From NCBI GenBank assembly GCA_028817435.1, contig JAPPPQ010000016.1, forward strand, positions 15,073 to 79,072: a stretch of DNA of 64,000 bases, in the 5' to 3' direction. The position numbers and the translations under genes were made by a program. Origin of the DNA: Deltaproteobacteria bacterium. Lineage in GTDB: Bacteria > Myxococcota_A > UBA9160 > UBA6930. The notes beneath the pieces were generated by a model. The model was given only the letters and a program-made list of their open reading frames with translations, searched no databases and was not told where the DNA came from. Within the stretch, counting starts at the first letter, position 1, and every line of letters starts with the position of its first letter. Shown here piece by piece: positions 4,870 through 55,997 of this stretch.

Positions 4870-5444
4870 CAGGGCGCCTCGGGGTGAATGTGGGGCAGAT
4901 AGGGCACGCCCAGCCGCTCGAAGCCCTCCGCGGTGCCCCAGACCACATCAATGGCGTCGGCGCGCAGCGCGAAGGCGAAGAGCGGCGCGGGCGGCCCCGT
5001 CCAGCCGGGCGGATTGGCCCCGGCAATCTCTCGCGCCAGCGCAAGGCGCTGCGCCTCTGCCAGCGCGGGGAAGCGCCGCCCGTGCCGTGCCTGCGCCAGC
5101 GCGTCCAGGGCGGCCAGGCCGGGCCGGTAGAAATCTGCGTAGGGGGGCGCAATGTCCAGCAGCCGCAGAAAGAGCAGCGAATCCGCCGGGGGAGCGGCGA
5201 GCTGCGAGCCGATGTAGTGGGCCAGACCGGCCTCTGCCGCGCCCGGCGCCAGGGTCTCGCCGTAGGTCTCCAGAATCTCAATCTCGCCGGGCGTAAGGCT
5301 CTCGATGGGCACGCCGCGCGCCCGGGCCTGCCGGGGGCTGAGCAGCCCGTAGGCCCCGAAGTGGAGGGCCAGCGCCCCGCCGGCTGCCCCCTTCACAAAG
5401 CTGCGCCTGCTGAAAATGGCCCCGCTGCCCTGCGTTCCGGACAC
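4866..5444 (-). CDS. Gluconate 2-dehydrogenase subunit-3-family small subunit with twin-arginine signal
   Basis: Only the 3' third of track ORF 4866-6455 is credible. GTG at 5444 gives VSGTQGSGAIFSRRSFVKGAAGGALAL (Tat motif SRRSFVK). An ATGA overlap joins it to the GMC gene at 4866-4869. Confidence 0.65.
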   Translation of the reverse strand: MSGTQGSGAIFSRRSFVKGAAGGALALHFGAYGLLSPRQARARGVPIESLTPGEIEILETYGETLAPGAAEAGLAHYIGSQLAAPPADSLLFLRLLDIAPPYADFYRPGLAALDALAQARHGRRFPALAEAQRLALAREIAGANPPGWTGPPAPLFAFALRADAIDVVWGTAEGFERLGVPYLPHIHPEAPW

Positions 5445-5551
5445 TGCCCCTTCCCCCGAATTTGCGAATCGGGGCCGGATTCGAGGCCGAATCGGCCTTT
5501 TCGCCCCGATTGGGTTTTTTGGACTGAATTGGGCGGCGGGCCATTTTCTGT

Positions 5552-5581
5552 TTGACTTGCGCGCCGCTTCCCGCTTAGGAT
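5552..5581 (+). promoter_or_regulatory. Possible sigma70-type promoter of the TonB-dependent receptor gene
   Basis: TTGACT (5552-5557), an 18-nt spacer, then TAGGAT (5576-5581), about 50 nt upstream of ATG 5631. AGGAGGAGGAG RBS at 5616-5626. Confidence 0.3.
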
Positions 5582-5630
5582 AGCCTGGATTTGGCTTACA
5601 TGTAAATAAAAATTCCAGGAGGAGGAGAAC

Positions 5631-8141
5631 ATGTCCGGCAACCACAGGCACCTCAACGGAATGGCGGGAATCGCGCTGGGCCTGGCCCTTGGGGCGGGCG
5701 GCGTGGCCTGGGCGCAGGAGCAGGCGCAGGAGCAGGCGCAGGAAGCGCGGGCAGAGGCCATCTCCGCCATTGAGGAAATCACCGTCACGGCGCGCAAGCG
5801 CGAGGAGCCGCTGCAGAAGACGCCGGTGGCAATCACCGCCTTCTCCGGGGCCGATCTCGAAGCGCTGCAGGTGGACGATGTCTCCCAGGCGGCGGAGTTC
5901 GCGCCGAACCTGGTCTTCGACAGCGGCGCGCCGGTGAGCGGCTCCAGCGCCACTGCCTCTATCTTCATCCGCGGCATTGGCTCCTCGGAGTTTTCGCTGG
6001 GCACGGAGCAGGGCGTGGGGCTGTATGTGGACGGCGTCTACCTGGCGCGCAGCGTGGGCGGCGTGCTCGATCTGGTGGATGTGGAATCGCTGCAGGTGCT
6101 GCGCGGGCCGCAGGGGACGCTGTTCGGCCGCAACACGGTGGGCGGCGCAATTCTCATCCAGAGCGCGCGCCCGGCGGATGAGCTCGGCGGCAGCATTCGC
6201 TTCACCACCGGCACTGATACCCGCGCCGATTTGAAGGCCAGCGTGGATATTCCCCTTGGCAGCACGCTGCGCTCGCGCTTTTCGTTTTTGCGCACGCTGC
6301 GCGATGGCTATGTGGAGAACCTGGACGGCGGCGAAGATTTGGGCAGCGACAACGCCTTCACCGGCCGCGGCGTGCTGGAGTGGACGCCCTCGGAGCGGAC
6401 GAGCTTTACGCTGGCCGCCGACTACACCCGGGAGCGCGAAAGCGCCGCGCCCCATGTGCTGCTGGCGTTGCCGACTGGCCTGCAGCCGATGCTGGACGAC
6501 GCCGGAGATCCGACGGGATTGTTCACCAACTTCGCCATTGACCCGCGCCCGCAGAGCGAATGGCGCACGCCCACTTCCTATTTCGAAATCTACTCGAACG
6601 GGCGCGCCGGACTAGGTTGCGGCGGTGTGAGCCGCCGCGATGGCGTGCTGGACGGCTGCATTGACCAGGATTACATACTGGGAGCTTATCGGACTTACGG
6701 CGGTTACAGCACACGCAGGCAGGTTTTCGAGGACCAGATTGCGCAGCCCTACGAGAATGCCTCGGACCTCGATGTGCGGGGCGTTTCTCTGACCGCGGAA
6801 TTTGACCTGGGCGGCGCCACGCTCAAGTCCATCACTGCTTTCCGGGATTTGGAGGGCTACTGGCCCCGCAACGCCGACCACAGCGCCGCGCCCGGCCTGG
6901 AGACCAAGAACGAGTTCGAGCAGGAGCAGCTCACGCAGGAGCTGCAGTTGCTGGGCACGGCCTTCGGCGATTCGCTGGACTGGATTCTCGGCCTCTACTA
7001 CCTGGATGAAGAGGGTGAACACCTGGACGATGTGGGTTTCCCGAATTTCATCTTCCGCAGCGGCGGCATCTTCACCATCGAGACCTGGGCCGCCTTCGCA
7101 CAGAGCGGATGGCGCATGGGCGAGCGCTGGGAGTTGACGGTGGGGGCGCGCTACACCAGCGAGGAGAAGACTTACGATCCCGATGACAATCAGTTGATCA
7201 GGGCGAGCTTGAGCGCCGACCTGTTCCCCGATATGGATGACACTACGACCATTGAGCAGCAGCGCGACCGACTTCGCATGGCCATTCTGGCGGGGCAATT
7301 TCCGCCCATCCCCGGCCGCGGCGTGCCGATTGTAGCCAGCACCACGCCGAATCTGGACATTACCGAGACCACGCCCTATGCCAGCCTCTCCTTCGATGTG
7401 GCGGAGAACTTCCTGACCTACATTTCCTACTCGCGGGGCTACAAGAGCGGCGGTTATGAACAGCGCGTTGCGCCCCCCCCCGCACCCGCGCCGCGTTTCC
7501 TGCCGGAATTTGCAGATGTCTATGAGTTCGGCTTCAAGTCCACCATCTTCGGGGGCAGCATGCGCTTCAACGGGGCGGTCTTCTACACCGACTACAAGGA
7601 TATGCAGATCTCGCTCACCGACGGCTCCGCGCCCACCATCAGCAACGCGGGCGATGCGACCATACAGGGCTTTGAGCTGGAGGCCGCCTGGCTGCCCACG
7701 CCCGCCCTGCGGATTGACGCTGCGCTGGGCTACCTGGACGCGGGTTACGATTCCGTCCATCCGCGCGCCGTTGCATCCGGCGTGCGGCTGGACAACGACC
7801 TGCCCAATGTGGCGGATCTGAACTTCTCCCTCTCGGCCGCCTACGAGTTCGGCCTCGTGAACGGCGGGGCGCTCACGCCCCGCGTGGATTTCTCCCACCG
7901 TTCCGAGGTGGCCAACGACGCGGCGAATACGCCGGAGCTCAAGCAGGACGCGGTGAACCTGCTGAATGCCAGCCTGGCCTACACCAGCCCCGGTGAGCGC
8001 TGGTCGCTTGTGGTGGCGGGCCGCAATCTCCTCGACGAGGAATATCTGGTCACCGGCCTCGCCGATCCCATCGTGGGATATGTGGAGGGCATTTATGCGC
8101 GGCCGAGTCAGTGGAGCCTGTCGCTGAAGGTGAGTTTCTGA
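5631..8141 (+). CDS. TonB-dependent receptor
   Basis: 836 aa. Signal peptide, TonB box/plug start IEEITVTARKREEPLQKTPVAITAF, and a beta-barrel ending in terminal ...SLSLKVSF. Confidence 0.9.
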   Translation: MSGNHRHLNGMAGIALGLALGAGGVAWAQEQAQEQAQEARAEAISAIEEITVTARKREEPLQKTPVAITAFSGADLEALQVDDVSQAAEFAPNLVFDSGAPVSGSSATASIFIRGIGSSEFSLGTEQGVGLYVDGVYLARSVGGVLDLVDVESLQVLRGPQGTLFGRNTVGGAILIQSARPADELGGSIRFTTGTDTRADLKASVDIPLGSTLRSRFSFLRTLRDGYVENLDGGEDLGSDNAFTGRGVLEWTPSERTSFTLAADYTRERESAAPHVLLALPTGLQPMLDDAGDPTGLFTNFAIDPRPQSEWRTPTSYFEIYSNGRAGLGCGGVSRRDGVLDGCIDQDYILGAYRTYGGYSTRRQVFEDQIAQPYENASDLDVRGVSLTAEFDLGGATLKSITAFRDLEGYWPRNADHSAAPGLETKNEFEQEQLTQELQLLGTAFGDSLDWILGLYYLDEEGEHLDDVGFPNFIFRSGGIFTIETWAAFAQSGWRMGERWELTVGARYTSEEKTYDPDDNQLIRASLSADLFPDMDDTTTIEQQRDRLRMAILAGQFPPIPGRGVPIVASTTPNLDITETTPYASLSFDVAENFLTYISYSRGYKSGGYEQRVAPPPAPAPRFLPEFADVYEFGFKSTIFGGSMRFNGAVFYTDYKDMQISLTDGSAPTISNAGDATIQGFELEAAWLPTPALRIDAALGYLDAGYDSVHPRAVASGVRLDNDLPNVADLNFSLSAAYEFGLVNGGALTPRVDFSHRSEVANDAANTPELKQDAVNLLNASLAYTSPGERWSLVVAGRNLLDEEYLVTGLADPIVGYVEGIYARPSQWSLSLKVSF

Positions 8142-8170: not shown

Positions 8171-10300
8171 ATGGCAGAGCGTTCCTTCGAGCATGAGGTC
8201 CGCAAGCTGCGGCTCGGTGCGGGTGAGGTGTTCCGGGGCGAGGGCGTGCTGGCTGTCACCAAGGCGCTGTTGCAGTCGGGCGTCGCCTATGTCGGCGGAT
8301 ACCAGGGCGCGCCCATTTCGCACCTGATGGATGTGCTCTGCGACGCCCGGGAAGTGCTGGATGAGCTGGGCGTGCACTTCGAATCGAGCGCCAGCGAGGC
8401 GGCGGCGGCGGCCATGCTCGCCGCCTCCGTCAACTACCCGTTGCGCGGCGCGGTGACCTGGAAGTCCACCGTCGGCACCAATGTCGCATCCGATGCGCTC
8501 GCCAATGTGGCCTCGAGCGGCGTGCGGGGCGGGGCGCTCATTATCGTCGGCGAAGACTACGGTGAGGGCTCCTCCATCATGCAGGAGCGCAGCCACGCCT
8601 TTGCGATGAAGTCGCAGATCTGGCTGCTGGATCCGCGCCCGAACACAGAGTCCATCGTCGCTGCCGTGGCGCATGGTTTCGAGCTTTCCGAGGCTTCCAA
8701 CACGCCGGTCATGCTGGAGTTGCGCATCCGGGCCTGCCATCTCTACGGGCGCTTTGCCGCCGGGGACAACCGCAGGCCCGCATTCAGCCTGCGCCAGGCC
8801 ATGGAGAATCCGCAGCGCGATACAGAGCGGATTGTGCTGCCGCCTGCCAGCTTTCTGCACGAGCGCGAGAAAATCTCCGCGCGCTGGCCCGCCGCCGTGA
8901 AGTTCATTGAGGACAACGCGCTCAATGAATTTCTCGGCGGCGGCGATGGCGAAATTGGCCTGATCGTCCAGGGGGGCCTTTACAACACGCTGATTCGCGC
9001 GCTGGAACTGATGGGACTCTCCGACAGCTTCGGCGGCGCCCGCTTGCCGATTTATGTGTTGAATGTGACCTATCCGCTGGTTCCCGGGGAGGTCGAGCGT
9101 TTTTGCAGGGACAAGAAGGCCGTGCTGCTGCTCGAAGAAGGCCAGCCCGCTTTTCTGGAACAGGCCATCGATTCGTTGCTGCGCAAAGCGGGCCTTCCGG
9201 CCCGGCTGCTGGGCAAGGAGTTGTTGCCGCTGGCGGGCGAATACACCCATGAGGTGGTGAAAGAGGGACTCCGCGCCTTCCTCGGAGCGCACGCGCCGCA
9301 TCTGCTCGACGCCGCCCCGCTCTCAGTCCGCAGCGCGGAGGAAGCGCCATCGCTCAATGCGCCCGCGCGGCCGCCCGGTTTCTGCACCGGCTGCCCCGAG
9401 CGGCCCCTGTTCACGGCAATCCGCCTGCTGGAGCGGGAGATGGGGAGCTTTCATGTCAGTTGCGATATTGGCTGCCATTTGTTTTCCATTCTGCCCCCTT
9501 TCAACATTGGCAACACCACCATGGGCTACGGGCTCGGATGGGCCGGGGCCGCCGCCTTCAATACCGATTCCGACAAGCGCACCATTTCCATCATGGGCGA
9601 TGGGGGCTTTTGGCACAACGGACTCACCAGCGGCGTCGGCAACGCCGTCTTCAACCGCAACGACAATGTCCTGGTTGTCATTGACAACAATTACTCCGCC
9701 GCGACGGGCGGGCAGGACCTGCTCTCCTCGCGCGCGCGCGGCGGGATTCGCAGCCTCGGGCATTCCATCGAAGCGGCGGTGCGTGGAATCGGAGTGCGCT
9801 GGCTCCGCACCGTCAATATCTTCGATCTCAAGCGCGTCCTCGCCGCGCTGAGGAAGGCGCTCACGACGGAGGAATCGGGCCCGAAGGTCATCGTCGCGCG
9901 CGGCGAATGCCAACTCAACCGCCAGCGCCGCATGGGGCCGCTGCTGGCGAAGCAGCAAAAGAGCGGCGCGCGCATTGTGAGGCAGCGCTTCTTCGTGGAT
10001 TCCGAAACCTGCACGGGCGATCACGCCTGCATACGCCTGTCCGGCTGCCCTTCGCTGACGATCCGGCCCAACCCCAACCCGCTCAAAGAGGATCCGGTCG
10101 CCTATGTCGACAACACCTGCGTCGGCTGCGGCCACTGCGGCGAGGTCGCGCACGCCGCGGTGCTCTGCCCCTCTTTCACACGCGTGGATTTGATCTTCAA
10201 CCCCGGCCTTTTCGACCGCGCAGTGGGCCGCTTCCGGGGCGCGCTCATTGGGCGCTTGCAGAAGCGCGCGGAGCGGAGGCGCGCAGCGCGGGCGGCGTGA
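8171..10300 (+). CDS. iorA: Indolepyruvate:ferredoxin oxidoreductase alpha subunit (TPP- and 4Fe-4S-binding)
   Basis: 709 aa. N-terminus GEGVLAVTKALLQSGVAYVGGYQGAPISH. TPP region GDGGFWHNG. C-terminal Cys clusters CTGDHACIRLSGCP and CVGCGHCGEVAHAAVLCP. Confidence 0.85.
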   Translation: MAERSFEHEVRKLRLGAGEVFRGEGVLAVTKALLQSGVAYVGGYQGAPISHLMDVLCDAREVLDELGVHFESSASEAAAAAMLAASVNYPLRGAVTWKSTVGTNVASDALANVASSGVRGGALIIVGEDYGEGSSIMQERSHAFAMKSQIWLLDPRPNTESIVAAVAHGFELSEASNTPVMLELRIRACHLYGRFAAGDNRRPAFSLRQAMENPQRDTERIVLPPASFLHEREKISARWPAAVKFIEDNALNEFLGGGDGEIGLIVQGGLYNTLIRALELMGLSDSFGGARLPIYVLNVTYPLVPGEVERFCRDKKAVLLLEEGQPAFLEQAIDSLLRKAGLPARLLGKELLPLAGEYTHEVVKEGLRAFLGAHAPHLLDAAPLSVRSAEEAPSLNAPARPPGFCTGCPERPLFTAIRLLEREMGSFHVSCDIGCHLFSILPPFNIGNTTMGYGLGWAGAAAFNTDSDKRTISIMGDGGFWHNGLTSGVGNAVFNRNDNVLVVIDNNYSAATGGQDLLSSRARGGIRSLGHSIEAAVRGIGVRWLRTVNIFDLKRVLAALRKALTTEESGPKVIVARGECQLNRQRRMGPLLAKQQKSGARIVRQRFFVDSETCTGDHACIRLSGCPSLTIRPNPNPLKEDPVAYVDNTCVGCGHCGEVAHAAVLCPSFTRVDLIFNPGLFDRAVGRFRGALIGRLQKRAERRRAARAA

Positions 10301-10310
10301 GGAAGCAAGC

Positions 10311-11786
10311 GTGACCGGAGCAGCCGACCGGCCCATTTCAATTGCCATTGCAGCGCTCGGAGGGCAGGGCGGGGGAGTTCTGGCGCAGTGGCTCACCGAC
10401 CTTGCCGAAGCCAACGGCTGTGTCGCGCAATCCACCTCGGTTCCCGGCGTCGCCCAGCGCACCGGCGCGACAATTTACTATGTGGAATTGCTGCCCGAGC
10501 AGGCGATTCAGCGCGCGGGCCGCTCTCCTGTGCTGGCTCTGATGCCCGCGCAGGGCAATGTGGATATCTGCATCGCCTCCGAATTGATCGAGGGCGGGCG
10601 CGCCATCGCGCGCGGTTTCGTCACACCCGACCGGACCACATTGATTCTCTCCGAGAACAGGATTTACGCCATTTCCGAAAAGGAGGCGCTGGGCGATGGC
10701 CGCGCCGATCCGGACAGCGTGCGCGCCGCCGCGCAGAGGGCGTCCAGAAACCTCGTCATGTTCGATATGCAGAAGGCGGCGGATGAGGCGGGCAGCGCAA
10801 TCAGCGCCGTTCTGTTCGGCGCGCTGGCGGGCTCGGGGGCGCTGCCATTTCGCCCCGAATCGTATCGGGACACGATTCGCCGGGCGGGCAGAGCCGTGGA
10901 GGCCAATCTTCGCGGCCTGGATCGCGGACTGGAAGGCGCGTGCGGCGGGCGGGGCATCGAATCGGCTGCGGAAACGGCGGCGCCGGCGAGTGTTGCGCCT
11001 CCCGCCGTTTGGGCGGCGGACTTCCCCGGCAGCACCCACGATATGATCGCGCGGGGTGTGGAGCGCCTCTGCGAATACCAGGACCGGGCTTATGCGGAGC
11101 TCTATCTGCAGCGTCTGCAGCAGCTACTCGCCGCCGGGTGCAGCCCGGAGGTGCTGCGGGAGACGGCGCGCCATCTCGCGCTGTGGATGAGTTTTGAAGA
11201 TGTCATCCGCGTTGCCGACCTGAAAGTGCGCGGCGAGCGCTTTGCGCAGATTCGGGAAGAGGTGCGCGCCGCGCCGGGGCAGCTCTGGTATGCGGCGGAA
11301 TATATGCACCCCCGCTACGAGGAATTCTGCGGATTGCTCCCCGCGTATCTGGGAAGCGCCTTGTTGCGCTCTAAATTTTTCAAGAGGCTTCTCTCGCCCA
11401 TTTTTTCCAGGGGGCGCATTTTGCAGACGGGGAAGCTGGGCGGGTTTCTGTTGCTCTATCTGCTGGCTGGGCTGAGACGGTGGCGGCGCGGAATGCTCCG
11501 CTACCGGCAGGAGAACGCGCTGATTGAGGATTGGCTCGCCAGAGTGCAGGAATGCGTCGGTGCAGATTCCGGGTTGGCTCTCGAAATTGCCCGGTGCCCG
11601 CGCCTTATCAAGGGCTACGGCGACACCCACGCGCGTGGTTTGGCGCGCTTTCTGCAGATTATGGAAAGAGTAGGAGCGCAGGCGCACAGTCCCCTCGATG
11701 CGCGGTCTGCACGCGCCCTGCGCGAAGCGGCGCTGGCCGACGAGGACGGGAGCGCCTTTGCCGAGGCCCTGCGCGGCCTCAATTGA
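10311..11786 (+). CDS. iorB: Indolepyruvate oxidoreductase beta subunit
   Basis: GTG 10311 preceded by GAGGAAG. Motif ISIAIAALGGQGGGVLAQWL (pyruvate:ferredoxin oxidoreductase gamma-type domain). Lies directly after iorA. Confidence 0.8.
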   Translation: MTGAADRPISIAIAALGGQGGGVLAQWLTDLAEANGCVAQSTSVPGVAQRTGATIYYVELLPEQAIQRAGRSPVLALMPAQGNVDICIASELIEGGRAIARGFVTPDRTTLILSENRIYAISEKEALGDGRADPDSVRAAAQRASRNLVMFDMQKAADEAGSAISAVLFGALAGSGALPFRPESYRDTIRRAGRAVEANLRGLDRGLEGACGGRGIESAAETAAPASVAPPAVWAADFPGSTHDMIARGVERLCEYQDRAYAELYLQRLQQLLAAGCSPEVLRETARHLALWMSFEDVIRVADLKVRGERFAQIREEVRAAPGQLWYAAEYMHPRYEEFCGLLPAYLGSALLRSKFFKRLLSPIFSRGRILQTGKLGGFLLLYLLAGLRRWRRGMLRYRQENALIEDWLARVQECVGADSGLALEIARCPRLIKGYGDTHARGLARFLQIMERVGAQAHSPLDARSARALREAALADEDGSAFAEALRGLN

Positions 11787-11793
11787 GTCCGGT

Positions 11794-13257
11794 ATGTCCA
11801 ATCCCTCCGAACGCATCCGGCACGCTCCCAATCCCGGCGCTTGGCCGACGCGGGCGCAGGCCGGGAAGTCCCGGCTCTTCTCGCCGCTGGTTCACGGGAA
11901 TCTGCGCCTCGCACAGCGCAGTTGGATCCCCGCCATGGTTCCCTGGCGGGCGAGTGACGATGGCTTTGTCAATCGGGATGTCATTGACTGGTATGCCCGT
12001 TTCGCGCGGGGCAGGCCCGGCGCGCTGGTAGTGGAGGCGACGGGGATTCGGGACATTCCCAGCGGCCCGCTGTTGCGAATCGGCCACGACCGCTACATCC
12101 CCGGATTGAAGAAGCTCGTATGCGCAGTGCGGGAGGCCAGCGGCGGCGAGACTCGCCTGTTGATTCAACTCATAGACTTTCTCACGATCCGCCGCAGACC
12201 AGCGCCCGAGAAATACTTCGCCCGCCATCTGCAGCTAACCGGCCGGCACCGGCGCGCGCTCGGCGCAGAAACCTGGAACGAGTCGCGCATCCGGTCTCAC
12301 CTGGCAGCTCTGGAAGACGCGGCGCTGGAACAGGTGCTGGATGCACGGGAGCTGGAGAGCCTGCGTATGGGGTTGCGCGAGCGCGTGACCGACACGCACC
12401 TGCCCGGCATTCGAGAGCTTCCCCGCCGCTTGCCCGGCCTGTTTGCACAGGCCGCGCGGCGCGCGCGCGAGTCGGGCTTCGATGGTGTGGAGCTGCACTA
12501 TGCCCACGCCTACACGATGGCCTCATTTCTCTCCGCGTTGAATACGCGGGCGGATGGCTACGGCGGCGCGCGCGAGAACCGCGTCCGCTTGCCTCTCGAG
12601 GTCTTTGATGCGGTGCGCTCGGAAGTGGGCGGCGATTATCTGCTGGGTTGCCGCTTCCTGAGTGAGGATTGCATTGCGGGCGGATCCACGCTTTCGGATG
12701 CGCGTTACTTCGCCGTCTGTTTTGCGCGCGCCGGAATGGACTTTCTCTCGCTGTCGCGCGGAGGCAAGTTCGAGGATGCCAGGCAGCCGAAGATCGGCCA
12801 GGCGGCCTACCCCTACACCGGGCCCAGCGGCTACGAGTGCATGCCGCAGGTGATATCCGACCGGCGCGGGCCTTTTGGCCGCAATGTCGAACCCGTTGCC
12901 GAGATCCGCAACGCACTGCGCGCGGCGGGCTTTGCGATTCCCGTCGTCGTCTCCGGGGGCATTCACGGCTTTCACCAGGCCGAGCAGATTCTCGCGCTCG
13001 GCCAGGCGGATATCATCGGCATGGCCCGCCAGGCACTCGCAGATCCCGACTGGTTTCTCAAGGTGCGCCTCGGATTTGGCGGAGAGATTCGCGTCTGCAC
13101 CTACACCAACTACTGCGAGGGCCTGGATCAGAAACACAAGCAGGTGACCTGCCAGCTCTGGGACCGCCTGAATTTGGAGGAAGCGGGCCTGCGGCGCGCG
13201 AAGGAGGGCCGAAGGCGCCTGACGGCGCCGGCATGGGTCCCTCCGGACGCGGGCTAA
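11794..13257 (+). CDS. NADH:flavin oxidoreductase, Old Yellow Enzyme family
   Basis: ATG 11794. PAMVPWRASDDG, VVEATG, GFDGVELHYAHAYTMASFLS and DGYGG are TIM-barrel OYE motifs. Confidence 0.8.
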   Translation: MSNPSERIRHAPNPGAWPTRAQAGKSRLFSPLVHGNLRLAQRSWIPAMVPWRASDDGFVNRDVIDWYARFARGRPGALVVEATGIRDIPSGPLLRIGHDRYIPGLKKLVCAVREASGGETRLLIQLIDFLTIRRRPAPEKYFARHLQLTGRHRRALGAETWNESRIRSHLAALEDAALEQVLDARELESLRMGLRERVTDTHLPGIRELPRRLPGLFAQAARRARESGFDGVELHYAHAYTMASFLSALNTRADGYGGARENRVRLPLEVFDAVRSEVGGDYLLGCRFLSEDCIAGGSTLSDARYFAVCFARAGMDFLSLSRGGKFEDARQPKIGQAAYPYTGPSGYECMPQVISDRRGPFGRNVEPVAEIRNALRAAGFAIPVVVSGGIHGFHQAEQILALGQADIIGMARQALADPDWFLKVRLGFGGEIRVCTYTNYCEGLDQKHKQVTCQLWDRLNLEEAGLRRAKEGRRRLTAPAWVPPDAG

Positions 13258-15593
13258 TCCTTTGCCGCCTTTCCGTAGTGGCGGCGCGCGGGGCGCAGCC
13301 GCACAGCCGTTTCCCGCAGCTTTTCCCGGGCCAGTTCCGCCTCGCGGTGGAGTTGGTATTCGCCCGAGGCATACTGCCGGGGCCAGCCTTCGGGGCGCAC
13401 GCCGTAATGGCCCGCCGCCTGCCGCGTGAAGTAGGGGTTGTTGAGATGGGGCCGGGCCAGCGCGCAGAGATCTGCGCGGCGCGCAGCGATGAGGGTGTTC
13501 ACCTGCTCCGGCAGGGTAATCGCGCCGACGGCCATGGTCCGAGCGCCAATTTCGTTGCGCACGAATTCCGAGAAGGGCGCCTGCCACATACGGCCGAAGA
13601 CCGGCTTCTGCCACTTCACTGTCTCTCCCGACGACACATCAATCAGGTCTGCGCCCGCGGCCTTGAAAGCGGCGGCGACGCTGCGCAGGTCGTCCCAATC
13701 CAGGCCGCCCTCCGCCCAATCCCAGGCCGAGATGCGCACCGACATGGGCCGATCTTCCGGCCACACCGCGCGCAGCGCGCTGAAGACCTCCAGCGGAAAC
13801 CGCAGCCGGTTTCCAACGCTGCCGCCATAGCCATCTCTCCGGCGGTTGGTGAGCGGAGAGAGAAAGCTCGCAAAGAGATAGCCATGCGCGCAGTGCAGCT
13901 CCAGCATATCGAAGCCCGCCCGCGCCGCGCGCTGCGCCGCCGCCACAAAGCTGTCGCGCACCGCGTCCATGCCGGCGCGGTCGAGCTCCTCCGGGATCGC
14001 CGAGACTCCCCCAATGTAGGGGATGGGCGAAGCCGAGAAGATCGGCCAATTGTCCGAATCCCTCGGCAGGTCCATGCCTTCCCACGGGCGCTTGGTGGAG
14101 CCCTTGCGGCCTGCATGGCCCAACTGTATGCAGAGCCTGGCCGGCGTGTGGGCGTGCACGAAGTCAACCAGGCGCTTCCATTCCGATTCCTGTGCATCGC
14201 TCCACAGGCCGGTGCAGCCGTCGGAGATGCGGGAATCGGGAGTAGGGCAGGTCATCTCGGTGAAGACCAGCCCCGCGCCTCCTAGCGCGCGGCTGGCGTA
14301 GTGCACGAAGTGCCAGTCGTTCCCGAGGCCATTCACTGCGGAATACTGCGCCATGGGCGACACCACCACGCGGTTTTCAACCCGTATGCCGCGCAGTTCC
14401 AGAGGCGTGAACATCGGCGCAGGGCGGTTGCCGCGGTTGCCAGAGCTGGCTTCGCAGCGGTGGAATTCATCCTCTACGCACTGCAGAAAGTGTGCATCGC
14501 GCAGGCCGACATTGTCCCAGGTGACGCTCTTTGAGCGCGACATCAGCGAGAAACAGAAGGCGTAGCGCTCCAGATTCCAGTGGCGCGGCATGGATTCGAA
14601 CCACTGCAGAGACACATCGGCGTTGTGCTGGATAATCTCCACGGGATCGCGCCGCTCTTCCTCGTAGCGGCGGAAGGCGGCCTGCACATCGCCCCCGCTT
14701 TCGACGAGGGCGCGGGAGAGCGCAATGGCGCACTCCATGGCGAGCTTGGTGCCCGACCCGATGGACCAGTGCGCAGATGCCTTGGCATCTCCCAGAAGGG
14801 CGATGCGGCCCGTGCTCCACTTTTCGCAGGTGACCCGGGGAAAGTTGCGCCAGAGCGAGCGGTTGGTGATGAGGGGGTGCCCCTGCAGTTCCTCGCTGAA
14901 CACCTCTTCGAGGTGGCGCGCGCTCTCTGCTTCGGACATGGCGCCGAAACCGCAGGTCTCCCAGGTCTCCGGCGTGCATTCCATGACCCAGGTGCTGCGC
15001 CCCTGCTCATACTGGTAGGTGTGGGCGCAGAAGTGCCCCTGCGGCGTGCGCTTGAAGAAGAAAGTGAAGGCATCCAGCGGCCGCGTGGAGCCCAGCCAGG
15101 CGAACTTGTTGCGATGCAGCGTTACCGATGCGCCGAAATCTGCGGCGTGTTGCGCCCGCACCTCGCTGTTGATCCCGTCGGCGGCGAGGATCACATCGCA
15201 ATCCGGGAAGCGCGCCTCGAGGGAGGCGGCGTCGAGGTGAGTCTCGAAGTGCAGCTTCACGCCCACCTGGCGGCAGCGCTCTTGCAAGAGGCCCAGCAGC
15301 CGGGCGCGCGAGCAGCCGGCGAAGCCGTTGCCGCCGATCACACTGCGCTGGCCCTCATGGCAGACGACGATGTCGCTCCAGTAGGCGAAATTGCGGCGGA
15401 TGGAATCGTAGGATTCGGGGTCCGCGGAGAGAAACTCGTCGAGAGTCTCGTCGGAGAAGACCACGCCGAAGCCGAAGGTGTCGTCGGCCCGGTTCTGCTC
15501 GAAGACCTCGATTTCGAAGTCCGGGCGGGCCTTCTTGGTCAGCAGCGAGAAATACAGCCCCCCGGGGCCGCCTCCGATCACCGCGATTTTCAC
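13254..15593 (-). CDS. Bifunctional FAD monooxygenase / OYE-like reductase (2-aminobenzoyl-CoA monooxygenase-reductase / salicylyl-CoA 5-hydroxylase type)
   Basis: 779 aa. N-terminus MKIAVIGGGPGGLY (FAD monooxygenase, LLGDAKASAHWSIGSGT). C-terminal half has OYE motifs (VVSPMAQYS, GFDMLELHCAHGYLFASFLSPLTNRRRDGYGG). Confidence 0.85.
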   Translation of the reverse strand: MKIAVIGGGPGGLYFSLLTKKARPDFEIEVFEQNRADDTFGFGVVFSDETLDEFLSADPESYDSIRRNFAYWSDIVVCHEGQRSVIGGNGFAGCSRARLLGLLQERCRQVGVKLHFETHLDAASLEARFPDCDVILAADGINSEVRAQHAADFGASVTLHRNKFAWLGSTRPLDAFTFFFKRTPQGHFCAHTYQYEQGRSTWVMECTPETWETCGFGAMSEAESARHLEEVFSEELQGHPLITNRSLWRNFPRVTCEKWSTGRIALLGDAKASAHWSIGSGTKLAMECAIALSRALVESGGDVQAAFRRYEEERRDPVEIIQHNADVSLQWFESMPRHWNLERYAFCFSLMSRSKSVTWDNVGLRDAHFLQCVEDEFHRCEASSGNRGNRPAPMFTPLELRGIRVENRVVVSPMAQYSAVNGLGNDWHFVHYASRALGGAGLVFTEMTCPTPDSRISDGCTGLWSDAQESEWKRLVDFVHAHTPARLCIQLGHAGRKGSTKRPWEGMDLPRDSDNWPIFSASPIPYIGGVSAIPEELDRAGMDAVRDSFVAAAQRAARAGFDMLELHCAHGYLFASFLSPLTNRRRDGYGGSVGNRLRFPLEVFSALRAVWPEDRPMSVRISAWDWAEGGLDWDDLRSVAAAFKAAGADLIDVSSGETVKWQKPVFGRMWQAPFSEFVRNEIGARTMAVGAITLPEQVNTLIAARRADLCALARPHLNNPYFTRQAAGHYGVRPEGWPRQYASGEYQLHREAELAREKLRETAVRLRPARRHYGKAAKD

Positions 15594-51475: not shown

Positions 51476-51547
51476 GGCGAAAACTTGGGGGTTGCGGAGT
51501 AGCTCTGGGTGAGCTACCGAGTTGATCCACGCCGGAGGAGAGAAATC

Positions 51548-52699
51548 ATGCCTGTTCGAGAATTCAGGAAGCCTGCTGTTTTGATCCAGCAGGGCAGGAA
51601 GAAGCTGTTCACCACATCTCTTACGGTAGAGGATTTCATGATCACCGGCTTCTATACCATAGACAAGTTGGATGCACATGAGGATGCGCAGGTGGACAAG
51701 GGCTTCCAGCGAATTTTGCAGGAGGATCGCGCTAAGAGACTGGCTAAGTATATGGTGGAATCCTGGAAGGAGAATCGGGAGGCATTTTTGCCTTCTTCGA
51801 TTTTCATGGCTACCGATAAGGATATCGAATTCGATAGCAACAGAAATGAAATTCATTTTGATATGAGCATTTGCCCGTTCAGCGTTGTTGACGGGCAGCA
51901 CAGAATTGAGGGCCTGAAGCAGGCAGCTTTGATAGATGAATCGTTGAAGGATTTTCCGGTTCCTGTGAACATCGCCGTCAATTTGACGCCAGTTGAGCAA
52001 ATGCTCCATTTCTATGTGGTCAATACGACGCAGAGGCCCGTAGATCCTGCTGTCGGAAATCGAATTTTGGCACGTCTCCATCATATGCGTGAAACTGAAG
52101 ATTTGCCCTATATCCCGTCTTGGATGAAGAGGCGGGTTGGCTCTGACGCGGATGCAGAGGCGATCAGCATAGTTACTCGCCTGAACTCCGATGATTCCTC
52201 TCCTTGGCGAGGCAAGATTCAGCTCGCAAATCAGCCAAAGGATAAGAAGTCTCATACCATTACCGAGAAATTCCTCGTTTCGGTAATAAAGAGCAACATA
52301 CTTTCATCGGGGCATCCGTTGAGGGCTTTTCGTTCAGAGGAGAGGCGCAATCGAATATTCATCAGTTATTGGAATGCCGTCGTAAACAAATTCACAACAG
52401 AATCAACCAGGAATAACACTGTTGTTTTCAAGTCAGTGGGGGCATGGTTCTTTGCCCGACTTTCTTCTGTCATGATTTCTCATGCGGCGCGCTTCAAGCC
52501 GGCCTACAAAGTGACTGATTTCGAGGAGATATTCGATTCCGTGAAAGAGATATTGCCCTCCGATTTGTCGAAGCTCACGTTCCCCGATTGGTGGAAAAGC
52601 GGAGGCGAAGCTTCTGGGTGGAATAGGTCTGCTGCGGACAGGGCCGCAATTGAATTCAGCCAGTATGTGAACGACCTAGCTGAAGGAGAAGAACTGTAA
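51548..52699 (+). CDS. DGQHR-domain protein (DndB-like, ParB/sulfiredoxin fold)
   Basis: ATG 51548 after GGAGGAGAG. KGFQRILQEDRAKRLAKYM, FSVVDGQHRIEGL, FYVVNTTQRPV. The C-terminal ~180 aa carry no motif I recognise. Confidence 0.8.
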   Translation: MPVREFRKPAVLIQQGRKKLFTTSLTVEDFMITGFYTIDKLDAHEDAQVDKGFQRILQEDRAKRLAKYMVESWKENREAFLPSSIFMATDKDIEFDSNRNEIHFDMSICPFSVVDGQHRIEGLKQAALIDESLKDFPVPVNIAVNLTPVEQMLHFYVVNTTQRPVDPAVGNRILARLHHMRETEDLPYIPSWMKRRVGSDADAEAISIVTRLNSDDSSPWRGKIQLANQPKDKKSHTITEKFLVSVIKSNILSSGHPLRAFRSEERRNRIFISYWNAVVNKFTTESTRNNTVVFKSVGAWFFARLSSVMISHAARFKPAYKVTDFEEIFDSVKEILPSDLSKLTFPDWWKSGGEASGWNRSAADRAAIEFSQYVNDLAEGEEL

Positions 52700-53040
52700 T
52701 GAAAGTCTCAATTTTGCGTCCGGAATGCTCAAACGAGGTGGAATTTTCCGAAACTTCTGTTTTGGATATCCCGATGCTCCCCGGTTGTTATGTGTTGTCC
52801 AATTGGTCTAAGGACATTCTCTATATCGGACAGGCGAAGTCTCTTCGGAGTCGAATCTATTCTCACTTGGCTGATTTCGCAAAAATCTCAATGACTGCCA
52901 TGGGGAAGATATATTGGATTCACTATGCGCTTTATGACGAGTTCTCACTAAATCGGCTTGAGCGGGGGTGGACGCAGCAGCATGAGAATCACGAGGGCAG
53001 TCTCCCAATTTTGAACAGGATTCAACCTCCTTCCGTGTAG
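52699..53040 (+). CDS. Stand-alone GIY-YIG nuclease domain protein (UvrC/Cho-type N-terminal motif)
   Basis: 113 aa; TAATG overlap with the DGQHR gene and its own GAAGGAG RBS. LPGCYVLSNWSKDILYIGQAKSLRSRIYSH, LERGW, LPILNR (Tyr, Tyr, Arg, His, Glu, Asn set). Confidence 0.75.
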   Translation: MKVSILRPECSNEVEFSETSVLDIPMLPGCYVLSNWSKDILYIGQAKSLRSRIYSHLADFAKISMTAMGKIYWIHYALYDEFSLNRLERGWTQQHENHEGSLPILNRIQPPSV

Positions 53041-53051
53041 GCCCCACTCCG

Positions 53052-53085
53052 CTCACCCCGGGCGGGGGTGGCAGAGGGGGTGGGC
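53052..53085. repeat. Degenerate copy (30/34 nt) of the 3' end of the amidohydrolase gene; left arm of a direct repeat
   Basis: CTCACCCCGGGCGGGGGTGGC is identical at 53052-53072 and 54160-54180. Similarity continues for 13 nt with 4 mismatches. On the minus strand the relic still reads ...HPRPG-stop. Confidence 0.8.
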
Positions 53086-53105
53086 ATCCGGGCACTCTCA
53101 AGTTT

Positions 53106-53528
53106 TTAACGAGCGTCTAGCAGGCTCACATTGTATTGCTGTTGCCGATCCAGTATCTGGTCGTCAGTTGTTACCAGCGTCAAGTCTCTGTGTTCTGTCT
53201 GTGCAATGAGCAGGCGGTCAAAAGGATCCCTGTGTTGGCGGTCGAAATGCAGGTTGGCAACTGCGCGGGCATCTGCATGAGTGATATGAATGTTATGGAA
53301 CTTTTGTCCCTCTAGTGCTGGCCAGAAATGTTCAGAAAACGGCAAGAGATTGTCGGAAAAATCAATCTTCCCTAGCGGATACTTGATGCTGATCTCCCAA
53401 ATGGATACTGCACTCACTATGACTCGATTGTCCAGATTCTCAATAGCATTCTTCACCATTGCGGAGAGGTTTCCGAGTCCGGGATCTAGCCACCGTAGCA
53501 CGACGCATGTATCCAGAAGGAGATTCAT
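53106..53528 (-). CDS. vapC: PIN-domain toxin, VapC family
   Basis: 140 aa. MNLLLDTCVV (Asp), SIWEISIK (Glu), DPFDRLLIAQ (Asp), LVTTDDQI (Asp). Confidence 0.85.
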   Translation of the reverse strand: MNLLLDTCVVLRWLDPGLGNLSAMVKNAIENLDNRVIVSAVSIWEISIKYPLGKIDFSDNLLPFSEHFWPALEGQKFHNIHITHADARAVANLHFDRQHRDPFDRLLIAQTEHRDLTLVTTDDQILDRQQQYNVSLLDAR

Positions 53529-54106
53529 CAGTTTTTAGTCGAGCTGCCGAATATCTCATCAAGGGAGATGGGCTTGTCGAAGTCAGGAGAGATCCAGAGT
53601 TTTCCGGCCAATGCGCCGGGCTTGCGGGGCTTCAAGTGCTGTTTTGAGTTTTTCAAATTTCCTATGAATTTCTGATCAAGAGCGAACTTGCTGATTGTCT
53701 TCCGGCTTTCGATCTTGATATTGAATTCGGCGTGGCGAATCTTGTTGCTTTCGTATTTGGCGAACTTATTGGCCGCAGACAGAGTGTCATTCGAGAGGTT
53801 TTTCATCTTCCCTTGCTTAATGTCGTTAAGCGTGGCTTCTATGTCCTCGCAAACGAGAACAGGCGAGAGCTTTTCGGATTTCGGGTGGGCTTCGAATACT
53901 ATTGTGATGGGGCTGGAATGCGACAATTGCACGAGGCGGAATATTACCTGTCCCTTGGGCACTCCCTGGCGCTTGGCGCATTCCTTTTCGCGGATTTTCA
54001 AGAATTTGGAGAGGGCATTGCTCTTGCCCAACACATCCAAGTCGAGGTATCCGCCGTTTTCGGCGGCGCTGTGAAGGATCAGGGAGATTTGGTTGCGCTT
54101 TGCCAT
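53528..54106 (-). CDS. Putative VapC-cognate antitoxin with an atypically long N-terminal region of unknown fold
   Basis: ATG 54106 after AGGAAGG; the longest ORF starts at 54145. Its stop overlaps the vapC ATG (TGATG). The C-terminal GKLWISPDFDKPISLDEIF resembles the DFD-x-P toxin-binding tail of PIN-associated antitoxins. Confidence 0.55.
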   Translation of the reverse strand: MAKRNQISLILHSAAENGGYLDLDVLGKSNALSKFLKIREKECAKRQGVPKGQVIFRLVQLSHSSPITIVFEAHPKSEKLSPVLVCEDIEATLNDIKQGKMKNLSNDTLSAANKFAKYESNKIRHAEFNIKIESRKTISKFALDQKFIGNLKNSKQHLKPRKPGALAGKLWISPDFDKPISLDEIFGSSTKN

Positions 54107-54159
54107 TGGCCTTCCTGATTCTAGTGGCTCCGGGGAGGCTGTCAAGTAGGAAATTCGGC

Positions 54160-54193
54160 CTCACCCCGGGCGGGGGTGGCGGAGGAGGCGGCC
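54160..54193. repeat. Right arm of the direct repeat; forms the functional 3' end of the amidohydrolase gene
   Basis: See 53052-53085. On the minus strand it encodes ...GRLLRHPRPG-stop. Confidence 0.8.
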
Positions 54194-55882
54194 GGGGAGG
54201 GCGCCGGTGAACTCGTCGTTTTCGATGGTGATTTCGCCGGAGACGATGGTGTGGCGGTAGCCGCGGGCGCGTTGCATGAAGCGGCGGCCGCCTGCGGGGA
54301 GGTCGAAGATCATCTCCGGCGGCTCAAGGCGCAGAGAGTCCAGGTCAATCACATTCACATCGGCCTTTTTGCCCACTTCCAGGGTGCCGCGGTCGCAGAG
54401 GCCGTAGAGGTCGGCGGTGTCTTTGGTCATGCGCTTCACGGCGAATTCCAGCGGCAGGCGCGGGCCGCGGGTGCGGCCCTTTACCCAGTGGGTGAGCATG
54501 AAGGTCTGAATAGAGGCGTCGCAGATCATGCCGCAGTGAGCGCCGCCGTCGCCCAGGCCGAGCGCGGCGCGCGGGTGCTGCATCATCTCGCGGATGGGCT
54601 CGGCGCACAGCGCGCTGTAGTTGAGCGCGGGCAGCAGCAGCAGTTCGCGGCCATCGCGCTCGAGCATGCGGTCGTAGAGCAGCTCGATGGGGTCGCGCCC
54701 GCTGCGCTTTGCCTGCGCCTCAATGGAGTCCTCGTAAGAGGGCTCGTAGTTGGGCGGATCGCCCATGGGAAAGGTCTTTTGCATTTGGGTGAGCAGGGCG
54801 CTTGCGCCGCCGCCCTCTTCGGAGAGAATGCGGCGCTTCAGTTCGGGATTGCGCAAGCGGCGGATGCGCTCGTCAAAGGGCAGCTTGAGCAGCGCGGCGT
54901 AGCTGGGGCGGTCGGAGAAAGGATGCAGTTCGGTCTGGTGGCCGATCAGCAGGCCGAAGGGGCGGCCCGCCACTTGCGGGAAAATCTCTGCGCCCTGTTC
55001 GGCGGCCGCCGCCGAGCGGCGCAGCAGTTCGCGCCACAGGTCGGGCGCGGCATCCACCTGCAGCAGCGCAAAGGTCACAGGGCGGCGGATTTCGCGCGAG
55101 AGCCGCACCATCCAGTCGAGTTCGCGGGCGGGCGCCGCCACATCTTCGCCGGCTGCGCCGGCGCCGGCTACCTCGAAAATGCCCGCGCCGCATTCGCCGA
55201 GCACGCGGCCAATGCCGAAGAGCTCGTCTTCGGCGGCGAAGGTGCCCGGCACCGGCTCGCCGCTGATGGCGCGGTGGGCGATGGTGCGCGAGGTGGAAAA
55301 GCCCAGCGCGCCGGCGTCCATGCCCTCGCGCACCAGCGCGGCCATGGCGGCGATGTCTTCGGCGGTGGCGGGTTGGTTCTGCGCGCCGCGCTCGCCCATC
55401 ACATAGGTGCGCAGTGCGCCGTGGGGCAGTTGCGTGCCCAGATCCATGGAGAAGCGGCGGCGCTCCAGCGCGTCGAGAAACTCGGGGAAGCTCTCCCACT
55501 CCCAGCAGATGCCCTCGTGCAGCGCCGCGCCGGGAATGTCCTCGACGCCCTCCATCAGCTCGACCAAAAAGCCCTGCTGCCCTGGGCGCACCGGCGCAAA
55601 GCCCACGCCGCAGTTGCCCACCACCACGCTGGTAACGCCGTGATAGCAGGAGGGCGCGAGCTGCGAATCCCAGGTGGCCTGCCCGTCGTAATGGGTGTGG
55701 ATATCCACGAAGCCGGGGGTGACCACAAGGCCCTCGGCGTCAATGCTGCGCTTTGCGTGGGCCGCGCCGCAATCGCCAAGCGCCGCGATGCGCCCGTCCG
55801 CCAGCGCCACATCGCCCCGGCGCGGCGCTGCGCCCGTGCCGTCCACCAACATTCCGCCGCGAATCACGAGGTCGTAGCTCAT
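54161..55882 (-). CDS. N-acyl-D-amino-acid deacylase (D-aminoacylase) family amidohydrolase
   Basis: 573 aa. MSYDLVIRGGMLVDGTG, VVTPGFVDIHTHYD (metal-binding HxH), and a C-terminal beta-domain. Confidence 0.85.
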   Translation of the reverse strand: MSYDLVIRGGMLVDGTGAAPRRGDVALADGRIAALGDCGAAHAKRSIDAEGLVVTPGFVDIHTHYDGQATWDSQLAPSCYHGVTSVVVGNCGVGFAPVRPGQQGFLVELMEGVEDIPGAALHEGICWEWESFPEFLDALERRRFSMDLGTQLPHGALRTYVMGERGAQNQPATAEDIAAMAALVREGMDAGALGFSTSRTIAHRAISGEPVPGTFAAEDELFGIGRVLGECGAGIFEVAGAGAAGEDVAAPARELDWMVRLSREIRRPVTFALLQVDAAPDLWRELLRRSAAAAEQGAEIFPQVAGRPFGLLIGHQTELHPFSDRPSYAALLKLPFDERIRRLRNPELKRRILSEEGGGASALLTQMQKTFPMGDPPNYEPSYEDSIEAQAKRSGRDPIELLYDRMLERDGRELLLLPALNYSALCAEPIREMMQHPRAALGLGDGGAHCGMICDASIQTFMLTHWVKGRTRGPRLPLEFAVKRMTKDTADLYGLCDRGTLEVGKKADVNVIDLDSLRLEPPEMIFDLPAGGRRFMQRARGYRHTIVSGEITIENDEFTGALPGRLLRHPRPG

Positions 55883-55920: not shown

Positions 55921-55997
55921 TGGCACGCCGGGAGGGATTCGAACCCCCGACTCCCAGGTTCGAAGCCTGGTGCTCTATCCAGCTGAGCTACCGGCGC
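55921..55997 (-). tRNA. tRNA-Arg (anticodon UCG)
   Basis: I folded the 77-nt cloverleaf by hand: GCGCCGG-TA-GCTC-AGCTGGATA-GAGC-A-CCAGG-CTTCGAA-CCTGG-GAGTC-GGGGG-TTCGAAT-CCCTC-CCGGCGT-G-CCA. The anticodon loop is CU-UCG-AA. There is one G.U pair in the acceptor stem (1:72) and one in the T stem. CCA is encoded. Confidence 0.9.

Follow-up and report, generated by a model that had tools for sequence, protein, structure and literature searches.

A 64,000-nucleotide stretch of the deltaproteobacterial contig JAPPPQ010000016.1 (assembly GCA_028817435.1), referred to here as the window, raises the question of whether two small overlapping genes, one encoding a DGQHR-domain protein and the other a GIY-YIG nuclease core, form a unit of their own and, if they do, what that unit does. 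A preliminary description had proposed that the pair is an uncatalogued sensor-plus-nuclease module serving defense or DNA surveillance. Both open reading frames (ORFs) lie on the + strand, the DGQHR gene at 51548-52699 (383 amino acids [aa]) and the GIY-YIG gene at 52699-53040 (113 aa), and the remainder of the window consists of catabolic and transport genes.

Conserved pairing of the two genes

Linkage of the two genes was followed in 83 loci, 80 of them fetched from species-representative genomes and three from metagenome contigs; a scan of genome contigs with the single protein returned nothing, and the loci were recovered by an alignment-based scan. The loci span more than 15 bacterial phyla and one archaeon (Methanoperedens), with groups that include Acidobacteriota, Bacteroidota, Verrucomicrobiota, Planctomycetota, Nitrospirota, Chloroflexota, Actinomycetota, Bacillota, Patescibacteria, Melainabacteria, and several proteobacterial classes. 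A homolog of the GIY-YIG protein lies directly 3' of the DGQHR gene on the same strand in 83 of 83 loci (phmmer E values of 1e-11 to 1e-44), so that the conserved neighbor of about 110 aa for which the preliminary description had suggested looking does exist, and in most of the loci the genes overlap, usually by 4 nucleotides (nt; ATGA or GTGA) and otherwise by 1 nt. Homologs found independently from the nuclease side have a DndB-family gene directly upstream in 8 of the 8 places examined. The adjacency statistic applies to the subfamily of the window protein (identity of about 37% or higher); DGQHR proteins from phage contigs that are further removed (L100 to L103, 25 to 32% identity) are without a nuclease partner and were set aside as members of other subfamilies. 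Both genes are present in four close relatives from IMG/VR proviral contigs, and in a set of 2.9 million viral contigs, 10 have a gene for a relative of the DGQHR partner. The pairwise distances of the two proteins are correlated, with a Mantel r of 0.79 and none of 2,000 permutations as high. It is strongly supported that the pair is a real, conserved, and autonomous two-gene unit, and none of the computational refutations foreseen in the preliminary description, all of which were put to the test, overturned the idea of a module.

Chance adjacency of the two genes was also considered as a candidate explanation and is ruled out by the linkage, its reciprocal, and the co-divergence.

Single-ORF relatives bear on the same question. 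A profile search run exhaustively over 1.84 billion cluster representatives returned 191 matches to the DGQHR protein at E ≤ 1e-30 and 2,465 at E ≤ 1e-3, and true fusions surfaced solely in this search. One of them (P0249, 524 aa) has a DGQHR domain at residues 2 to 349, 31% identical to the window protein, and its residues 423 to 523 match the window GIY-YIG protein, with the family-specific motifs, at an E value of 9e-13. The other (P0271, 460 aa) has an HNH nuclease domain (PF01844, 41 bits; not DUF1524) C-terminal to its DGQHR domain. Both types were confirmed on contigs, each standing alone among housekeeping genes: the DGQHR-GIY-YIG ORF at 5001-6575 of L105, between mdh and sucCD, and the DGQHR-HNH ORF at 5001-6383 of L106 and 2418-3800 of L107, two different samples, among sugar-metabolism genes. 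The fusions are rare, each being the sole member of its own 90% cluster. They argue that the two window proteins work as one machine in which the nuclease would be the output module and would be interchangeable. The proposed pairing of a sensor with a nuclease effector gains support from these fusions; the defense function attributed to it gains no direct support.

Homologs of about 470 to 580 aa are not C-terminal nuclease fusions, because the additional residues are at the N terminus. An extension of this sort, 90 to 210 aa long, is found on the DGQHR protein in about 11% of family members (roughly 1 in 9) and is of at least three unrelated kinds (DUF7669, DUF7662, and DUF5655-like, with others unassigned; for example, P0057, P0205, P0209, L049, L052, and L084), which suggests that the extensions are optional sensor or regulatory add-ons.

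The two proteins and their relation to known systems

The family assignments made in the preliminary description were all above curated cutoffs. The DGQHR protein scores 112.1 bits against TIGR03187 (DGQHR; cutoff of 58.85), with residues 10 to 298 aligned, and 52.9 bits against Pfam DndB (PF14072; cutoff of 29.1), and the small protein scores 26.6 bits against Pfam GIY-YIG (PF01541; cutoff of 22.6). All of the quoted motifs were found as well, namely, KGFQRILQEDRAKRLAKYM, VVDGQHRIEGL, and NTTQRPV in the first protein and PGCYVL, ILYIGQAKSLRSRIYSH, LERGW, and LPILNR in the second. Among the PADLOC models, the DGQHR protein matches those for DpdB (59 bits, residues 5 to 359) and DndB (24 bits) and nothing else. 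The C-terminal 180 or so aa, which had been thought impossible to place, are partly or largely covered by the TIGR03187 and DpdB alignments, so the C-terminal half belongs to the usual DndB/DpdB-type architecture. The equivalog models are widely missed, however, with 20.6 versus 328 bits for DndB (TIGR03233), 54.1 versus 450 bits for DGQHR_dnd_1 (TIGR04172), and 60.8 versus 300 bits for DpdB (NF041060). PF03235 (GmrSD_N, DUF262) gives no match to the window protein and only 14 to 20 bits in its relatives, against a cutoff of 33.2. Homologs number in the hundreds at full length (about 376 aa), and in RefSeq they and the nucleases carry the generic labels "DGQHR domain-containing protein" and "GIY-YIG nuclease family protein."

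The hallmarks of the DGQHR family are a QR pair, a nearly invariant DGQHR pentapeptide, and an FxxxN motif (PMC4619093). In an alignment of 47 homologs, Q54 and R55, D115 to R119, F155, Q162, and the four tryptophans of the helical domain (W192, W220, W275, and W349) are invariant and N159 is kept in at least 90%, so that all three motifs are represented. The pentapeptide, encoded by GAC GGG CAG CAC AGA at 51890-51904 (+ strand; residues 115 to 119), is the predicted nucleotide-binding loop of the ParB/sulfiredoxin (Srx) fold and, by analogy with the DGQQR of GmrS and SspE (PMC4619093, PMC10952713), a predicted nucleoside triphosphate (NTP)-binding motif. An AlphaFold2 (AF2) model of the protein (predicted local distance difference test [pLDDT] score of 90.4, predicted template modeling score of 0.85) has a mixed alpha/beta N-terminal domain to about residue 145, followed by an all-helical domain at about residues 148 to 383. 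Foldseek comparison of this model gave weak matches to ParB N-terminal domains (5k5d, 1vz0, and 6ryk; E values of 0.015 to 0.05, probabilities mostly of 0.8 to 0.96, low TM-scores), and the PHROG ParB-like profile matches the protein at 28.5 bits. The family profile found no match among PDB sequences, SspE and BrxU included, and in the Foldseek search the match to SspE was insignificant and no solved structure was close. Since the PDB profile search was empty and no strong Foldseek match was obtained, the helical C-terminal domain is without a structural relative.

The GIY-YIG protein consists of the catalytic core and an N-terminal segment, without a DNA-binding domain. Its catalytic set Tyr(GIY)/Tyr(YIG)/Arg/His/Glu/Asn is complete, and the corresponding residues (Y31, Y42 with G44, R52, H56, E88, and N106) are invariant in 84 of 84 sequences; the first 25 or so residues are specific to the family and conserved (L6, P8, F16, and P25). 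Relatives of nearly full length (E ≤ 1e-27) measure 107 to 121 aa with no fusion or extra domain, the exceptions being three partial calls of 84 to 94 aa. The AF2 model (pLDDT score of 93.2) matched the GIY-YIG domain of plant GRXS16 (1e-4) and the UvrC N-terminal domain (3e-4) in Foldseek, followed by R.Eco29kI (0.01 to 0.06) and, weakly, Hpy188I (0.09 to 0.16), and the family profile matched UvrC in the PDB (1yd6, 1e-7) along with T4 endonuclease II, SLX1, and I-TevI. The UvrC and Cho equivalogs were missed over about 40 aligned residues (TIGR00194, 28.7 versus 285 bits; Cho, 20.7 versus 367 bits), as was the homing-endonuclease model TIGR01453 (16.4 versus 56.05 bits), and there is no C-terminal extension. 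No PADLOC model of a GIY-YIG defense protein matched, the best PADLOC match being PDC-S14 (E of 7e-4). The invariant residues, uniform length, and structural and profile matches identify an intact minimal nuclease core rather than a fragment of uvrC or cho.

Decay of a cho- or uvrC-like 5' end, the other origin that the preliminary description had allowed for the small ORF, is ruled out by the uniform length of the relatives, the invariant catalytic residues, and ratios of nonsynonymous to synonymous substitution rates (omega) of 0.10 to 0.29.

In the libraries and papers searched, no named system corresponds to the pair. PADLOC-DB v2.0.0 contains no catalogued or candidate system with models for both proteins, and no description of such a pair (DGQHR, DndB, DUF262, or ParB with GIY-YIG) was found in the open literature, the comparison covering these sources and not the current DefenseFinder models; the statement that the pair is unnamed as a defense system held to that extent. 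Across the 49 ORFs of the whole window, PADLOC matched no dnd, ssp, dpd, or methyltransferase model, in agreement with the earlier claim that such partners are absent from the 64 kb; in addition to the DpdB and DndB matches of the DGQHR protein, it returned three weak single-member matches (CARF3--CARF_TM, 5e-5; PD-T4-2_B, 4e-4; PDC-S14, 7e-4).

The closest system in logic, though not in family, is GmrSD/BrxU/SspE, which comprises type IV restriction enzymes and a phosphorothioate-sensing nickase that combine a DUF262 ParB-fold NTPase with a DUF1524 His-Me nuclease. As in those enzymes, an endonuclease goes together with a domain, here predicted to be of the ParB/Srx type, that has the nucleotide-binding motif DGQ(H/Q)R, the parts are encoded by two genes or one fusion, a cognate methyltransferase is lacking, and spread is horizontal (PMC4619093, PMC10952713); a relative of the window protein even places an HNH domain at the same C-terminal position. 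In contrast, the window sensor is of the DGQHR/DndB-DpdB type rather than DUF262, the nuclease is a GIY-YIG core rather than a His-Me finger of the DUF1524 type, and split genes are the rule in the window family and fusion the exception. DndB and DpdB, the DGQHR proteins of phosphorothioation and 7-deazaguanine DNA-modification clusters, share with the window protein the domain family, the QR, DGQHR, and FxxxN motifs, a similar length, and the two-domain layout, but they lack a nuclease partner, which the window family always has, and neither score nor context makes the sensor a DndB or a DpdB. The nuclease finds its best sequence and structure match in the N-terminal GIY-YIG domain of UvrC and Cho, with the same Tyr/Tyr/Arg/His(Tyr)/Glu/Asn set, but is domain-sized as a whole and lacks the UvrB-binding region, the EndoV-like domain, and the (HhH)2 domain. 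Proteins that turn the GIY-YIG fold against foreign DNA include R.Eco29kI, R.Cfr42I, R.Hpy188I, PD-T4-3, PD-lambda-1, and SNIPE; unlike the window nuclease, these have DNA-recognition, membrane, or DUF4041 parts of their own, and the three restriction enzymes have a methyltransferase partner. Judged by its sequence, the window nuclease is not a UvrC, Cho, homing endonuclease, or known GIY-YIG defense protein.

Locus layout, transfer, and genomic surroundings

The DGQHR gene is preceded by a Shine-Dalgarno-like GGAGGAG at 51534-51540 (+ strand), 7 nt 5' of the ATG at 51548; an alternative GTG start at 51509 would yield a protein of 396 aa rather than 383 aa. The stop and start codons of the pair share one base in a TAATG at 52697-52701 (TAA at 52697-52699, ATG at 52699-52701), which points to translational coupling, and the GIY-YIG gene has its own GAAGGAG ribosome binding site (RBS) at 52682-52688 within the 3' end of the DGQHR gene; both of these features had been noted earlier and were seen again in the sequence. 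The low-GC islet was likewise borne out, with 46 to 49% GC over about 51600-53800 compared to 63 to 75% in the surrounding DNA.

The nearest relatives of many family members are in other phyla or domains, at 82 to 94% aa identity: the values are 94% for Chitinophagaceae and Melainabacteria pair members, 92% for Sphingobium and Methylophilus, and 82% for Methanoperedens and Nitrospirota. Nucleotide similarity between such cross-phylum relatives starts a few tens of bases or less from the DGQHR start codon and stops at the nuclease stop codon, so the transferred unit is the two ORFs alone. Both genes are under purifying selection, with omega values in two cross-lineage comparisons of 0.03 for the DGQHR gene and 0.10 to 0.14 for the nuclease gene, and the nuclease gene evolves faster than its partner in every comparison (0.10 to 0.29 versus 0.03 to 0.15).

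A sister strain (L001) carries a different allele of the pair. Its flanks are 97 to 100% identical to the window, and the adjacent PIN cassette is 95 to 100% identical per 100-nt block, whereas the interior of the pair (about 51615-53005) is 61 to 81% identical. Synonymous divergence (dS) is 1.11 for the DGQHR gene (omega of 0.15) and 0.87 for the GIY-YIG gene (omega of 0.29), compared to 0.03 to 0.07 for the PIN gene, its upstream ORF, and the amidohydrolase gene. The difference is the swap of one old functional allele for another at the same locus and not fast local evolution. Such allele replacement is common at conflict loci. Conservation with L001 is retained over the first ~70 nt and last ~35 nt of the pair (the leader and first ~70 nt are about 90 to 93% identical), as if these two extremities, 5' in the DGQHR gene and 3' in the nuclease gene, had served as recombination anchors between the diverged alleles. 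No empty site came to light at this chromosomal position: exact matching of 32 nt taken from the 3' end of the esterase gene gave nothing in metagenome contigs, and in an amidohydrolase look-up, all contigs carried the PIN cassette and the sole contig spanning the site also had the pair. About 2 kb from the pair there is a second small variable spot, where L001 has an extra ~990 bp (4961-5947; 56% GC) that the window lacks at about 56012, encoding a DCD/dUTPase-like protein of 205 aa and adjoining tRNA-Arg(TCG) at 55921-55997.

The PIN cassette next to the pair (53106-54145, - strand) is a separate module. A 32-nt direct repeat (21 nt exact) with a GC hairpin, CACCCC-GGGCG-GGGGTG, has one copy at 53052-53083, at the right edge of the pair and left edge of the cassette, and a second at 54160-54191, which forms the native 3' terminus of the amidohydrolase gene (54161-55882, - strand); there are two copies in the window, with none expected by chance, and both also occur in L001. 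As the repeat brackets the cassette, the islet consists of two modules, and the arrangement suggests that the cassette was inserted separately with duplication of a target or att-like site. Its PIN gene (53106-53528) follows an ORF of 192 aa from an ATG at 54106, or 205 aa from a TTG at 54145, and a strong promoter-like site of its own lies at 54145-54118 (11 of 12 positions matched). The description of this neighbor as VapBC-like holds in part: the PIN part stands (PF01850, 37 bits), but the putative VapB is atypical in length, its VapB/DUF2281 likeness is confined to the last ~30 residues (164 to 194), and its N-terminal ~160 residues have no match in Pfam, the PDB, PHROGs, or PADLOC.

No third gene is conserved with the pair. 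All-versus-all clustering of 2,169 flanking ORFs gave no family present in more than 12 loci, the largest being ABC-transporter ATPases and short-chain dehydrogenases, and Pfam and PADLOC scans of 150 immediate neighbors found no Pfam family more than 4 times, with restriction-modification, integrase, and relaxase genes occurring 2 to 3 times each. No dndACDE, dpdA, or dpdC gene lies in the window, and none flanks the pair in 80 loci. Because nothing else is conserved around it, the pair appears self-sufficient. The clustering of toxin-antitoxin genes, earlier taken as a hint of defense, proved local to the window genome, given that no family recurs in more than 4 of the 150 neighbors, and the cassette is a separate insertion.

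Some loci have methyltransferase or DGQHR-like genes nearby. An Eco57I-like N6-adenine methyltransferase gene lies 3' of the pair in four loci, three of which are copies from one gammaproteobacterial lineage (L002, L003, and L004). In that lineage, a liv-type ABC transporter operon houses the pair (about 6001-7493 in L002) and the methyltransferase gene, which separate its binding-protein gene from its permease genes. Two IMG/VR proviral contigs (L095, at 9553-14588, and L096, in the corresponding part) encode, near the pair, a 774-aa protein that weakly resembles the DGQHR profile (E of about 1e-10) and what we take, from an FLKWAGGKR motif alone, to be a Dam-like methyltransferase.

Possible functions of the pair

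The reading that we favor, and hold at about even confidence, is that the two proteins are subunits of one autonomous nuclease that would act like a methylase-independent restriction or defense enzyme. The DGQHR protein, with its predicted ParB/sulfiredoxin-type domain and its helical domain, would bind DNA and a nucleoside triphosphate as the sensor or targeting subunit and would recruit or switch on the 113-aa GIY-YIG protein as the catalytic subunit; the GIY-YIG core alone would be unable to locate DNA, and the complex would nick or cut it. Linkage, co-inheritance, fusion variants, intact catalytic residues, purifying selection, horizontal spread, and allele replacement are shown by the data, and the physical complex, NTP dependence, the DNA target, a role in defense, and a benefit to the host are inferred. 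Nucleotide binding is proposed because of the ParB/Srx-type loop, because DndB, as cited in PMC10853773, is reported to be an ATP-modulated autoregulator, and because DUF262 proteins are NTPases (PMC10952713). A type IV (modification-dependent) or otherwise methylase-independent mode is proposed because no methyltransferase or other partner is conserved; discrimination of self from foreign DNA would then rest on something other than a cognate methylation mark, for which recognition of modified DNA is the simplest proposal. In favor of this reading are the linkage, the fusions, the co-divergence, the lack of a third partner, the intact and minimal nuclease, the invariant DGQHR motifs with full-length similarity to DpdB/DndB-type proteins, and signatures of a conflict system, namely, spread across phyla, nucleotide homology that ends with the ORFs, the diverged L001 allele, and the low-GC islet; restriction enzymes that combine a ParB-fold NTPase with a nuclease provide precedent (PMC4619093, PMC10952713). 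A defense role is a reasonable proposal.

Several points weigh against this assignment. No DNA target or self/non-self rule is readable from the sequence, and the DGQHR protein lies outside the GmrS/DUF262 family and has no meaningful structural match to SspE. The neighbors are mostly housekeeping genes (for example, those for aconitase, Hsp70, and tRNA synthetases), with only a few restriction-modification, integrase, or relaxase genes among the 150, so that any association with defense islands is at best modest. A selfish element, too, could account for a unit that inserts alone among core genes and is transferred as no more than two ORFs. A narrower version of the favored reading, which we regard as distinctly unlikely, would make the pair a new class of modification-dependent (type IV-like) restriction enzyme whose sensor reads 7-deazaguanine derivatives or phosphorothioates and licenses a detachable GIY-YIG nuclease. 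Recognition of the modifications made by dnd and dpd clusters would be expected from the proposed descent of the reader from DndB/DpdB proteins. Some phages use 7-deazaguanine derivatives or phosphorothioates to evade restriction.

The selfish alternative would be a mobile cassette encoding a two-subunit homing-type endonuclease, GIY-YIG being its catalytic half and the DGQHR protein its targeting half, that invades empty sites by cutting them and having itself copied there in the course of repair, without benefiting the host; we consider both this identity and this mode of spread unlikely. The fold is the classic one of homing endonucleases, with profile matches to I-TevI and T4 endonuclease II, spread between phyla is extensive, and the unit, transferred as exactly two ORFs, often stands alone between core genes, as between mdh and sucCD, in the liv-type operon, and by a tRNA synthetase gene (L091 and L092). 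However, the insertion sites have no common homology between genomes and so give no sign of a cognate target, the family is very rare in viral contigs, a NUMOD or helix-turn-helix DNA-binding tail is missing and the TIGR01453 score is far below its cutoff, and strong purifying selection (omega of 0.03 to 0.29) with invariant catalytic residues is not what is expected of homing genes, which commonly decay. We give similarly little weight to an addiction or abortive-infection pair of the toxin-antitoxin kind, in which GIY-YIG would be a nonspecific toxin that the DGQHR protein represses, neutralizes, or both until a trigger arrives. Small, translationally coupled, low-GC genes beside another toxin-antitoxin-like cassette, a nuclease that evolves faster than its partner, and the reported autoregulation by DndB would all suit such a pair, but single polypeptides with GIY-YIG or HNH are more easily understood as a regulated enzyme than as a toxin and its labile antitoxin, the supposed antitoxin is 3 times the size of the toxin and has an invariant enzyme-type NTP-binding motif, and toxin-antitoxin neighbors are not general across loci.

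The resemblance of the nuclease to the UvrC N-terminal domain and Cho, its best matches in sequence and structure, could instead reflect an accessory repair activity in which the DGQHR protein reads a lesion or a backbone or base modification in the cell's own DNA and the GIY-YIG subunit incises it. This is very improbable, given a patchy distribution driven by horizontal transfer (about 200 pattern-matched genomes among 185,579 species), the exchange of alleles between sister strains, equivalog scores far under the UvrC and Cho cutoffs, and neighbors that include no link to uvr or other repair genes. Least credible of all is an orphan remnant, a DndB/DpdB regulator left by the loss of a dnd or dpd cluster and standing by chance beside an unrelated small nuclease gene: the DndB and DpdB models do match, and the window lacks dnd and dpd genes, but the equivalog cutoffs are widely missed, the fusions, co-divergence, and purifying selection speak for a working pair, and the adjacency statistics effectively refute the idea.

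If the favored reading is correct and the pair restricts foreign DNA, it would be a compact (about 1.5 kb) and widely transferable defense system that PADLOC-DB v2 misses, and it would provide the first function for "orphan" DGQHR proteins outside dnd, ssp, and dpd clusters. It would also mean that the design in which a ParB-fold NTPase switches on a nuclease arose more than once with interchangeable nucleases, which are GIY-YIG for the window pair, HNH for a relative, and His-Me for GmrSD. A GIY-YIG core this small, reliant on a second subunit for targeting, could also find use as a programmable or modification-sensing nuclease. Should the pair instead be a selfish two-subunit homing nuclease resident in the chromosomes of many phyla, that would be unusual as well.

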